The notes: generated by a model not told the origin, from the sequence alone. Shown: positions 6,332 through 14,432, counted from the stretch's first letter. The stretch: 64,000 nucleotides of DNA from an uncultured bacterium (GCA_937935355.1 CALGYR010000143.1:8077-72076); one strand, 5' to 3'. Made by a program: numbers and translations.

Positions 6332-9300
6332 ATGAGGAAGTGGAGTTCGGTGCTGGCGGCGTCCCTCGTTGTGTTGGCTGGCGTTCTGAGCGGAGGCCGG
6401 TCCCTGGCCGCAGATTGGGTCCAGGCGTCGAGCTACGCCGATGCCGAGGGAAAGTGGACCTACGAGACGAGGGCCTACGACCTCAACACCGGTACCTATA
6501 GTCCCGACGGCTCGAATCGAGCTGGTTGGGGCGCGGTCTTGAAGCTCAACTACGCCACGCCGGTGGATAGCGACCGCGTGCGGGTGAGCACCGACTTCGG
6601 CTATGGGGTGGTCGACAAGGTCAAGCTGACGGTGACCTATAGCGACGACTCCACCGCCTCGATGGAGTACGGTAGCCCGGTGGTCCAGGACGTCACCTAC
6701 TCGACCCTGACTTTCACCAGGGGCCTGGTCAAGTCGGTCGAGTTCAGCTACCACTATCTATCCTCCGGATGGATCTTCTGGCTCTACGAGTGCCAGCTCT
6801 ACCAGTGCCCGGCAGCCCCCGATCCACTGAGCGGAACCACCCTCGAGCCCTCGAGCATCAACGCCACGAGCGCCGTGCTCCACGGGAAGGTCGTCAGCAA
6901 CGGCGGTCTGCCCTGCTGGGGCCGGTTCGTCTACTGGAAGTCCCCTGAGACCAAGCTCTACACCCCCTGGAGGAGCGACCTCGGCAACAACCAGGAGTTC
7001 ACCGCGGCGGTGAGCGCCCTCGACGAGAACGCCGGCTACGCCTATCAGACGCAGCTGGCGGTCAGCGCCAACCCGGCGGCAGAGGACATCGTCACCTGCG
7101 AGCCGCTCAATGCCTTCACGACCGTCAAGGTCGATGAGACGAGCAGCATTGAGTGGGTGAGCCCGAGCCTCGCCTGGGCCGATGCCGGCACCTGGGAGTT
7201 CGCCGATCAGGGCATGGACGATGACACGGCCACCTTCGCCCGCTGCTTCCACGAGATCGACACCGACACCTGGAGCCCCTTCGTCCACTACAGCACCGAC
7301 CTCCAGTCGAACGGCATCCGCGTTTTCGCATCGGCCACCAACACGGACATGGTGGACATCGACATCCTGAAGGATGGCGTCTGGCAGGATCTCTATCAGG
7401 GCATCTTCACGGGCGGCACCTGGCAGCAGTTCCCCTTCGAAAAGGGGCTGGTGACTGAGGCGAGAATCCGGCTGCATGGGTCGATAGGCTACGCCAGCTT
7501 CTACTGGAACCTGATGGAGGTGGACTTCCATCAGAAGGACGAGCTCCGGACCACCCGTTTCTTCGTGGGGCCTGGCTCCGACTGGAGCAGCGCGGCCAAC
7601 TGGAGCGCGGAGTCGGGCGGAACGGGCGGGGCGAGTGTCCCGGGCACGGGCTGTGTCGCCATCTTCGATGCCAACTCCCCGAACTGCACGCTGAGCGCCA
7701 ATATCAGCGTGGAAGTCATTCGCCTGGAGGCAGGGTACACTGGTGTCTTCGACGCCGTGACCTCCTCGATCACCATCGAGCGCAACCGCGGCTTCGGCGA
7801 GCTCAAGGTCGCTGGCGGCGAGATCCGGCTGGGTAGCGCCACGCACACTATCAAGGACAACCTGCGCGTCGCCGGTGGAACGGTCACCCCTGGCACCTCG
7901 ACGGTCGGCTTCCTGGCCCCCGGCGACGGGAGCTTTGAGGTCGCCGGCAGCGTCGGCCTGAATAACGTCCGCTTCTACCACTCGAACTCCGGCTCCAACA
8001 ACAAGGTCGTGACCATCAATGGCACGGTGACGGCCAATGGCAGCCTGACCATGGAGGGCTACGCCTCGGGTGGCTGGCATCTCTACCTCAATAGCGGCGA
8101 GATCGTCGCCAAGGGTGCGATCAACGGCAACGGCAAGGTGATCCGCGGCACGGCCAACCTCACCGTGGCCGGCGATGCCGCGGACCAGGTCCAGACCAAC
8201 CTCCAGTGGGGCACGAGCGGCACCTACACCGTCAACAAGCCCGCTGGTAAGCTGATCCTTGCCGCCAACGAGAAGTTCGGCGAGACGGCCGACACTAAGG
8301 TGGTCATCAACTCCGAGGTGGATGCGGTCAGCATGCAGCCGACCGTGTGGCTCTGCGGCTACGCCTACGGTGACGTCAAGATTACCGGCAACTTGACCGC
8401 CTGGAATGTCAACTTCTACCGCAACGGCGGCACCGGCACCTCGAACTTCGACCTTAGCTCCGGCACTCTGACAGTCCTCAACACCCTGAACCTTAACATG
8501 ACCGCCGATGGTGGCTGGCGCGTGAACCTGGTCTCCGGCGGGACCGTCGACTGCAAGGGCAACGTGACGATGACCAGTGTCACGGGCGCCTATTGGAGCG
8601 GGGCAACCCTCCGCGTGAGCGGGACCGGCGACCAGAGCATCGCGCTCGGCACGTTGCCGTTGGGCACCACGGTGGTCGATAAGGCCAGCGGCACTGCCTC
8701 CTTTCCGGATGGGCTCAAGAGCACGACCATCACACTGCAGCCGGGCTCAACCGTGGCCTTTGGGGCGGGGAAGACGGTCGGCACCAGCAATATCAGCTGG
8801 CGCGGCGAAGAAGGCCTGAAAATCACCCTGCGCAGCACCGTGGACGGCCAGCGCTGGCTCTTCAAGCTTCCCGAGCGCTACGTCATGGACGAGTGTTACC
8901 TGGAGTGGGTCGACGTGAAGGACAGCGACGCGTCCCTCGGTCAGCCCGCCGTCGTGGCCGTAGCCGGCACCGATTCCGGCAACAACATCAACTGGGACTT
9001 CCTGCTCCCGGTGGATGTCCAGATCACGACCCCGGCCGAGAGCGCCACGAGCCCCGCGTGGGTGGAGGGGACGGTTGGGCCAAATGTGACCGAGATGGAT
9101 GTCTCCGTCAACGGCGGAGCTGCGTTCCCCGCGACGCGTGATGCGGTGATCAAGTGGTTCGCCAACAACTCCACGAACTCCGCCATGGGCGTAGGGCTCT
9201 CGCCCACGGAGGCGACCCAGGTCGTGGTGACTGGGCGCACTTGCACCGGCCGGGAGGCCAGCGCGTCCCAGAACATCGTCTGGGCGGCGACCGACCTCCG

Positions 9301-13973: not shown

Positions 13974-14432
13974 ATGAGCAATCCTTGGCTTGAGGTGCAT
14001 GTTGATTCGGCGGCGACAATTCCTGCTATTGAGCGGTTATTGGAAGTCAGTCTTGAGAAAGCTGAACTTCGGGAAGCGCCTCCTGGAGAATATGTCCCCG
14101 GAAGAATGGGAGGTATTCAAGTGTCCTACAAGGGGAGGATTCCCTACTATGGTGAATATGACCGCGACTGGAAGTTCCGGGTTATCTTGGACAATGCAGG
14201 TAAATGGGATGAGATAAGACTGGTCTTGGCCATGAAACTCTGCCAATGGCTCTTGGGAGAGTTTCCTGGCTACTACCTAGGTCGCTTAGACACAGGTGCC
14301 GTTTTGTTCTATGGTAATCAGGAAGAAATGAGTATTGACGACAGAGCTAGGGCTTTGTGTGAAGCAAGTCGGGCCTTCGATTCGTATCCTTTCGAGGGAC
14401 GCCGCCAGTTCCGGCCTCTACGGCCAGTATGA
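13974..14432 (+). CDS. putative cognate immunity protein of the polymorphic toxin
   Basis: 152-aa ORF starting 14 nt after the toxin stop, with an AGGAG RBS. Position and size fit toxin-immunity pairs. It has no recognisable motif, so the call rests on context. Confidence 0.55.
   Translation: MSNPWLEVHVDSAATIPAIERLLEVSLEKAELREAPPGEYVPGRMGGIQVSYKGRIPYYGEYDRDWKFRVILDNAGKWDEIRLVLAMKLCQWLLGEFPGYYLGRLDTGAVLFYGNQEEMSIDDRARALCEASRAFDSYPFEGRRQFRPLRPV

Follow-up and report, generated by a model that had tools for sequence, protein, structure and literature searches.

The DNA analysed here is a 64,000-nucleotide stretch from an uncultured bacterium (GCA_937935355.1, CALGYR010000143.1:8077-72076), hereafter called the window. 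On its plus strand a giant gene (6332..13960) is followed by a small gene (13974..14432), and the two are probably a toxin and immunity module of the polymorphic-toxin type. The open reading frame (ORF) of the giant gene runs as a single frame without interruption over 7.6 kb (6302..13960), being open from a GTG at 6302, from which all residue numbers below are counted; subtracting 10 gives the numbering from the ATG. A GGAGGA motif stands ahead of this ATG, which lies at 6332, with a spacing of 6 nt. Both the frame and the start codon are those of the first-pass annotation, and only its length of 2543 amino acids needs correction, as 2543 is the number of codons including the stop and the product has 2542 residues. 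Exactly this product is present in public collections, where it is a singleton at the 90% cluster level. The identical locus was also assembled independently from another sample, in a 12.7-kb ENA contig (L002) that carries the same neighbours, including a co-linear HEAT-repeat gene upstream.

The N-terminus of the protein, MRKWSSVLAASLVVLAGVLSGGRSLA followed by ADW (6332..6409), is predicted to be a Sec signal peptide as earlier proposed, because inspection reveals a basic n-region, a hydrophobic core and small residues at positions -3 and -1, with neither a lipobox cysteine nor a twin-arginine motif. The PKD domain that had been named also stands: residues 1499-1582 (10796..11047) match Pfam PKD_4 at a borderline 25.2 bits in the whole protein and at 32.4 bits (E 1e-7) as an isolated segment, against a cut-off of 27. 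Two other parts of the proposed scaffold were not confirmed. The first is a set of PATR-like (passenger-associated transport repeat) beta-helical repeats, for which neither PF12951 nor TIGR02601 was matched at E up to 1 (Pfam, NCBIfam) and self-BLAST found no internal repeats; residues ~430-960 are rich in G, T, N and V. The second is a helical pre-toxin region. A stretch rich in A, L, K and E does precede the Hint domain (residues ~1990-2194; 12269..12883) and is presumed helical from its composition, and its last ~55 residues are common to some other PT-HINT proteins, in which tblastn matches extend back to residue 2139. It matches no Pfam profile, PT-TG included. Since there are no profile matches and no repeats by self-BLAST, we regard both regions as impressions gained from composition, although the G/T/N-rich regions of the scaffold are probably beta-rich. 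No toxin-associated trafficking domain was matched in the N-terminal 2,190 residues (Pfam, NCBIfam), and when scaffold residues 11-1210 were compared with genome contigs, the sole match was a weak one, to an ordinary giant surface protein from the metagenome-assembled genome of an uncultured organism.

Towards the C-terminus the assignment becomes firm. A Pretoxin-HINT domain reaches from Cys2195 to Asn2350 (12884..13351), as delimited by Pfam and by an alignment of 14 sequences. The Pfam PT-HINT profile (PF07591) matches residues 2201-2350 with E 3.8e-18 and 66.5 bits (cut-off 27.7 bits) over its positions 1-136 of 137, and Hint_2 was also matched in the scan of the whole protein. C2195, the segment CTPEHPFW (2278-2285), in which T2279-P-E-H2282 forms the T-x-x-H block, and V-H-N (2348-2350) are invariant in the alignment. 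The Hint domain described earlier, running from a cysteine to VHN, is therefore full-length and keeps its catalytic residues, and it carries in addition a lineage-specific insertion of ~30 residues. A metagenome scan with residues 1900-2350 recovered 20 loci with relatives of the Hint region (24-38% identity), and in 18 of the 20 the homology stops exactly at N2350 (tblastn). The sequences that follow HN in these relatives are unrelated to each other and to the present tail; they comprise ~90-190 amino acids or only a few residues before the stop, and some are HNH-like. The sharp break at HN in these alignments is the defining junction of polymorphic toxins. For PT-TG/PT-HINT proteins of Streptomycetaceae, PT-HINT has been predicted to set the toxin free at the cell surface (PMC13483458), and in Pseudomonas CdiA proteins of class I it marks the pre-toxin boundary (PMC4725963). 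The part of the present protein that follows VHN counts 202 amino acids, close to the ~200 first estimated.

No close homologue of this tail came to light. A word-seeded search of 5.8 billion proteins was empty, an exhaustive phmmer search of 1.84 billion representatives yielded nothing but a spurious repeat protein (P0003), and tblastn against plasmids gave no match. The exhaustive search, made against representatives at 50% identity, did not return the parent protein itself, though it is in the underlying collection; the representative of its 50% cluster may carry a different tail. When the tail was searched alone, the sole meaningful Pfam match was to a toxin family, CdiA_C (PF18451; E 1.9e-4, 22.0 bits, and 17.6 bits in the whole protein), and no non-toxic domain was assigned to the residues after VHN. 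The best sequence match in the PDB was 4g6v_A, the CdiA-CT of B. pseudomallei 1026b (E 0.44). We gathered members of PF18451 (P0004 and P0005, plus E. coli, Nostoc, Ralstonia, Duffyella and Moraxella plasmid loci), and one of these, P0005, aligned with the tail over 55 ungapped residues at 33% identity (BLASTP, E 2e-7). A profile of three PF18451 sequences scored 20.9 bits against the tail, while the maximum in 5000 shuffles was 8.4, and hhalign with a six-member profile gave a probability of 88-91% (E 1e-6 to 3e-6). The MAFFT alignment carries the family match to the C-terminal hairpin with one insertion of 8 residues. Several independent weak signals thus converge, and they identify the tail as a very divergent, remote relative of the PD-(D/E)xK family of CdiA-CT Bp1026b and SitA3-CTD, although the first-pass annotation had found that it fitted no toxin family that could be named. 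The putative nuclease core occupies 13598..13957. The N-terminal ~80 residues of the tail (13352..13597), for which no homologue was found, are predicted to be helical with low confidence, and the first ~80-100 residues may form a linker or an entry domain.

The catalytic positions point in the same direction. The active site of the Bp1026b toxin consists of E187, D214, D223 and K242; the enzyme uses Mg2+ as its cofactor and acts on tRNA-Ala (PMC9086364). In the ungapped alignment with 4g6v_A, D214 is equivalent to D2465 of the pair P2464-D2465, D223 to E2474 (a change from Asp to Glu) and K242 to K2493, while E2439 is a candidate for E187, lying 26 residues before PD where the family spacing is 25-27. 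An earlier guess at a PD-(D/E)xK arrangement was hence right about the kind of nuclease and about the PD, which is the catalytic PD of the family. It was less fortunate with EGK (E2479-G-K2481), which is not conserved in the PF18451 family; the alignment favours E2474 and K2493, although EGK could contribute to the active site. An AlphaFold model of the tail from the single sequence was unusable (pLDDT, the predicted local distance difference test score, of 38). A model whose alignment included two helper sequences 74-87% identical to 4G6V was then compared with the PDB by Foldseek, and 4g6v_A came first with E 2.2e-5 as the sole match at or below 1e-3. The modelled fold is consistent with the sequence evidence.

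The small gene downstream (13974..14432) is located as first annotated. It encodes 152 amino acids without a signal peptide and starts 13 nt past the toxin stop, and its Shine-Dalgarno sequence, AGGAGA, overlaps the toxin stop codon, an arrangement that makes the two genes translationally coupled. Its product belongs to no known family, as Pfam and NCBIfam contain no match to it even when E values up to 10 are admitted and the PDB contains no relative, and a scan of genome contigs was equally negative. One other homologue was found, with 68% identity, on a 759-bp ENA contig (L001, ERZ27257488 k141_309301). The dN/dS ratio (nonsynonymous to synonymous substitution rates) between the two is ~0.10, with synonymous sites saturated, and this indicates a real gene under purifying selection. 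The junction of stop codon and Shine-Dalgarno sequence (TAGAGGAGA) is conserved on this contig (TAG plus AGGAGA) together with ~17 nt downstream. The same contig begins with poly-G and shows an upstream frame with a TGA six codons earlier; its copy may be an immunity gene on its own, or the assembly may be truncated. Two candidate relatives of the 152-residue protein were tried and rejected. A likeness to the CorC_HlyC domain 2OAI (PDB search, E 0.01) fell to E 0.21 with a two-sequence profile and is ascribed to chance. A likeness seen by eye to the SitI3 protein of Nostoc gave E 0.71 by BLASTP and 0.1% by hhalign, and the SitI3 model NF040657 showed no hit at E values up to 10 while giving the Nostoc control 79.6 bits. 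The proteins encoded downstream of the PF18451-type toxins that we fetched fall into four mutually unrelated groups (the present protein; E. coli, Duffyella and Moraxella; Nostoc SitI3; and Ralstonia), which agrees with the observation that immunity proteins in this toxin superfamily are not homologous to one another (PMC9086364). The 152-residue protein and its homologue would represent a new immunity family, with two members so far.

The pair resides within a region that differs from its surroundings. A tRNA-Glu(UUC) gene (4706..4783, plus strand; ARAGORN, Rfam tRNA 60.2 bits), with a tRNA-Lys(UUU) just upstream (4523-4599; ARAGORN, Rfam), ends in 16 nt, CCCGTTGGGGTCGCCA (4768-4783, plus strand), which form an attL-like direct repeat with an exact copy at 15476..15491 on the same strand. 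Around this right, attR-like repeat a looser similarity extends over ~30 nt, and just beyond it the G+C content returns to the host level. The 16-nt repeat has two matches in the window and none in 100 shuffles, and G+C is 0.50-0.65 between the two copies and 0.70-0.77 outside. The toxin module lies on this 10.7-kb island at tRNA-Glu. Inside the left end of the island there is a frameshifted relic, ~30 codons long, of an IS256/Mutator-family transposase (4946..5045, plus strand), which matches Pfam Transposase_mut with E 0.0021 in the raw frame and with E 7.5e-5 and 22.2 bits (cut-off 21) as a frameshift-joined peptide; no integrase was found on the island. Just past the island, on the side with host G+C, some 14 degenerate tandem copies of an 8-nt unit (GTCCCCGC-like) occupy 16068-16179. 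No second copy of any part of the toxin, nor an orphan toxin fragment, was found elsewhere in the window.

Two HEAT-repeat proteins that seem to be targeted to the envelope bracket the toxin-immunity pair. The upstream one (5359..6255, plus strand; 298 amino acids, Pfam HEAT_2 E 5.4e-13) has an N-terminal hydrophobic anchor, and the G+C content at third codon positions (GC3) of its gene is host-like at 0.83, without a foreign signature. The downstream one (14572..15366, plus strand, open from a TTG at 14539; HEAT_2 E 3.6e-29) has a signal- or lipoprotein-like N-terminus; it seems to belong to an imported block, because its GC3 of 0.52 reflects the same foreign usage as the toxin tail. Other PT-HINT loci show no similar neighbour, a search that was made for the downstream protein only.

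The toxin gene itself is split by codon usage. A maximum-likelihood change point falls at residue ~1187 (~9863, plus strand; log-likelihood ratio 140), upstream of which GC3 is 0.87 and host-like and downstream of which it is 0.58 (windows 0.47-0.61). Other genes of the window have values of 0.88-0.96, and the candidate immunity gene has 0.49. Given this drop, the 3' half of the toxin gene and the immunity gene look imported. The simplest reading of these values is that a 5.6-kb block from a donor of lower G+C, encoding the C-terminal ~1,365 residues, the immunity protein and the downstream HEAT protein, replaced the 3' part of a resident gene for a giant protein. Such a replacement would most simply be a cassette exchange of the kind known from polymorphic toxins, with an exchanged segment that is unusually long.

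Taken together, these features argue for the polymorphic-toxin reading already put forward in the first-pass annotation: a secreted giant scaffold, a PT-HINT domain with its catalytic residues, a variable tail right after HN and a coupled small gene. We consider it probable that the locus encodes a Sec-exported toxin with a Hint-released PD-(D/E)xK nuclease and a coupled antidote, carried on the tRNA-Glu island. The 2542-residue protein would be exported by Sec and would display a long, probably beta-rich scaffold with its one PKD domain. An N-S acyl shift at Cys2195 and cyclisation of Asn2350 after His2349 would then let the Hint domain cleave itself and free the last 202 residues. The freed tail would act as a metal-dependent PD-(D/E)xK nuclease that most likely cleaves tRNA in the cytoplasm of a competitor, as the tested members of its family cut tRNA-Ala, and a route across the envelopes of producer and target is presumed. 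In the producer and its kin the cytoplasmic 152-residue protein would bind and block the nuclease. The present form of the locus would have arisen when the 3' 4.1 kb of the toxin gene recombined, together with the immunity and HEAT genes, from a donor of lower G+C into the resident scaffold gene.

Several observations weigh against this interpretation. The tail stays below the gathering score of PF18451 (22.0 versus 26.6 bits), and the confident part of its alignment with the family spans only ~60 residues. MAFFT and hhalign pair RKNA of the tail with RENE of the family, which places an Ala at the position of Glu187, albeit with negligible confidence, and global or relaxed hhalign leaves this position likewise unsettled. 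The fold match adds no independent support to the sequence match, because the alignment used for the model included two close relatives of 4G6V. Substrate specificity is not transferable, since identity to the family is only 23-33%, and other PD-(D/E)xK toxins of contact-dependent growth inhibition (CDI) systems are DNases (PMC9086364). No delivery machinery is encoded nearby, whether TpsB/CdiB, a type VI or type VII secretion system, or a lipobox for outer-membrane exchange (Pfam, NCBIfam). The immunity role of the 152-residue candidate is one that gene position alone suggests. Finally, neither at the cluster level, where the protein is a singleton at 90% identity, nor in the contig scan did an allele turn up that combines this scaffold with another tail; polymorphism in the present lineage is therefore read solely from the codon-usage break.

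Some of these points bear less on the architecture than on the activity of its tip. It is possible, though the less favoured outcome, that the released PD-(D/E)xK domain is a DNase, or a nuclease for some other RNA, instead of a Bp1026b-like tRNA-Ala nuclease. Among PD-(D/E)xK toxins of CDI systems there are the Zn-dependent DNases TA271 and YPIII, and two Burkholderia tRNases cut different tRNAs at different sites (PMC9086364). In the tail, the low identity to PF18451 members is accompanied by the replacement of D223 by Glu, an uncertain equivalent of Glu187 and an extra canonical E-x-K (E2479-G-K2481) that is foreign to the family. However, the tested family members, Bp1026b and SitA3-CTD, both cleave tRNA-Ala (PMC5562445). 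A more far-reaching version seems rather unlikely to us. It would make the 202-residue tail a new toxin type, with a helical entry leader of ~80-100 residues, a diverged core whose substrate or site is not that of tRNA-Ala cleavage, and an immunity family of its own; the 5.6-kb block would then be a mobile cassette for the toxin tip, grafted onto a resident giant surface protein, and a HEAT protein would serve as an accessory for delivery or protection.

The tail might also be a decayed and inactive relic, in which case the small ORF would be a leftover and the giant protein would now act mainly at the surface or as an adhesin. The catalytic Glu is possibly missing, no close homologue of the tail is present among the 1.84 billion representative proteins, delivery machinery is not encoded nearby, and the island holds a transposase relic without an integrase. 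Against this, the 7.6-kb frame shows no interruption, three of the four catalytic positions are retained in the tail and every catalytic residue in the Hint domain, the small immunity-like gene is likewise intact and translationally coupled and evolves under strong purifying selection, and assembly from another sample independently yielded the identical locus; we hence judge decay to be improbable. Still less can be said for a giant surface protein that is no toxin at all, with an intein-like domain for maturation only, a non-toxic nucleic-acid binder as its tail and an unrelated neighbour gene, a reading that the N-terminal 2,190 residues, devoid of a toxin-associated trafficking domain, and their sole relative, an ordinary giant surface protein, might invite, but that is hard to square with a Hint domain specifically of the Pretoxin type whose relatives carry toxin tails such as HNH, a tail that matches a toxin family and keeps its catalytic residues, and a coupled small cytoplasmic ORF next to it, as in toxin-immunity pairs.

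The window also contains an RNA-repair locus (28587-44238), to which the first-pass annotation had tentatively linked the toxin. The locus is real and encodes RtcR (28587-30245, minus strand; NF038308, E 3e-249), RtcA (32682-33731), RtcB (35134-36528), an RNA ligase (36695-37507; PF09414), Hen1 (39211-40614) and Pnkp (41638-44238). It is unusually complete, with Band7/SPFH, treble-clef zinc-finger and Sel1-repeat proteins in addition, and it brings the Rtc and the Pnkp-Hen1 systems together under a single sigma-54 activator. Four tRNA-like genes (30521-30672 and 31186-31340, plus strand) are located between RtcR and the operon of Band7, RtcA and RtcB, and ARAGORN calls them Thr(tgt), Leu(gag), which overlaps Thr by 4 nt, Cys(gca) and Arg(gcg). 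Rfam supports two of the four as tRNA (51.9 and 54.3 bits, compared with 60-75 for the tRNAs at 4.5 kb), and the four RNAs may be true tRNAs or else elements of the repair operon that resemble tRNA or Y RNA.

The proposed link between this locus and the toxin found no support. The repair locus is outside the island, which is bounded by the tRNA-Glu repeats and ends at 15491, 13 kb before RtcR, and the repair genes follow host codon usage (GC3 0.93-0.96, versus 0.47-0.61 in the toxin half). The distance of 13 kb is all that ties the two together. PD-(D/E)xK nucleases normally leave 3'-OH and 5'-phosphate ends, whereas RtcB and Pnkp/Hen1 act on 2',3'-cyclic-phosphate and 5'-OH ends; the breaks expected from the toxin would not be their substrates. 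That the toxin and the repair genes (RtcR-RtcA-RtcB, RNA ligase, Hen1-Pnkp) form one unit, in which repair might for instance shield the producer from its own or related tRNases, is accordingly very improbable: the two share one 64-kb window, the repair locus is complete and carries tRNA-like genes, and the toxin is probably an RNase, but the toxin has a dedicated immunity candidate of its own. A functional connection is unsupported.

Two further genes of the window deserve mention. At 48489-49931 (plus strand) a protein of 480 amino acids matches Pfam Volactin (PF25216; E 5.8e-48), a family named after an archaeal actin homologue; the genome with this Volactin-like protein is nonetheless presumably bacterial, since sigma-54 activators are present. 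A second giant ORF (55449-60071, minus strand; 1539 amino acids) contains Kelch/beta-propeller repeats and has no similarity to the toxin.

If our interpretation is correct, the locus extends the Bp1026b/SitA3 tRNase family to a third carrier, a Sec-exported giant protein with PT-HINT from an uncultured bacterium of high G+C, and to a sequence so divergent that neither search with the tail (word-seeded HMMER and exhaustive phmmer) found a relative. The codon-usage break inside the toxin gene would be a clean example of a foreign toxin half grafted onto a native scaffold. For annotation, the case suggests that a Pfam match below threshold, together with a check of catalytic residues, can serve to place an orphan toxin tail. 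The locus opens no new mechanism, and we see in it a real but fairly ordinary gene of bacterial warfare.

Compared with known systems, the present protein is most similar in its release region to the Pretoxin-HINT (PF07591) polymorphic toxins, in which the Hint domain likewise stands directly before a variable C-terminal toxin and Cys1, TxxH and HN are kept. It differs from the usual members in its scaffold, which matches no two-partner secretion (TPS)/filamentous haemagglutinin (FHA), LXG/WXG, Rhs, PAAR or MAFB module and no PT-TG. Moreover, the first residue after HN is Leu, while Cys is found at the second position in 8 of the 13 aligned PT-HINT relatives. Bacterial intein-like (BIL) domains are autoprocessing domains of the Hint fold that occur in variable regions of secreted bacterial proteins and end in His-Asn. 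The likeness to these domains lies in the fold and in the His-Asn end, whereas the Pfam assignment here is PT-HINT.

In its tail, the protein resembles CdiA-CT(II) Bp1026b (4G6V, PF18451). Both seem to have a PD-(D/E)xK core in which the secondary-structure elements follow one another in the same sequence; the PD, acidic and Lys catalytic positions align, the C-terminal ~95 residues are alignable throughout, and in both cases the domain forms the extreme C-terminus of a giant secreted protein with a small immunity-type gene next to it. PF18451 relatives are found at the ends of CdiA/FHA proteins (E. coli STEC299, Ralstonia), at the end of a large Nostoc plasmid protein and as short orphan ORFs (Duffyella, Moraxella). 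The present tail departs from the Bp1026b family in its identity of 23-33%, its score below the gathering threshold, the Glu that replaces Asp223, the ambiguous equivalent of Glu187 and the 8-residue insertion, which lies before the last hairpin. The context differs as well, as the tail stands behind PT-HINT and the Bp1026b toxin behind the VENN/PT motif of a CdiA protein of the type V secretion system. Unlike in CDI systems, neither CdiB nor a TPS/haemagglutinin domain was matched in the toxin or its neighbours (Pfam, NCBIfam), the latter being HEAT-repeat proteins.

A further parallel is SitA3-CTD/SitI3 of Myxococcus xanthus, where the same tRNase family is likewise used on a scaffold other than that of CDI. 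The CdiA-CT of Bp1026b cuts tRNA-Ala in the acceptor stem (PMC9086364), and SitA3-CTD, which is transferred by outer-membrane exchange, cleaves tRNA-Ala(UGC), its cytoplasmic toxicity being neutralised by SitI3, the product of the downstream gene (PMC5562445). Because SitA3-CTD uses outer-membrane exchange and not CDI, the family is known on different delivery scaffolds. On a plasmid of Nostoc sp. UHCC 0870 (NZ_CP091914.1; L005, 1-2241), a large protein has a PF18451-like end and the next gene scores 79.6 bits on NF040657, so that a pair of SitA3-type toxin and SitI3 occurs outside Myxococcales on another carrier. The SitA toxins are lipobox-bearing lipoproteins that require TraA/B, whereas the present toxin has a plain Sec signal without Cys, a scaffold of 2,300 residues and no sitB-like neighbour, and its 152-residue partner does not match the model of SitI3, the partner of SitA3.

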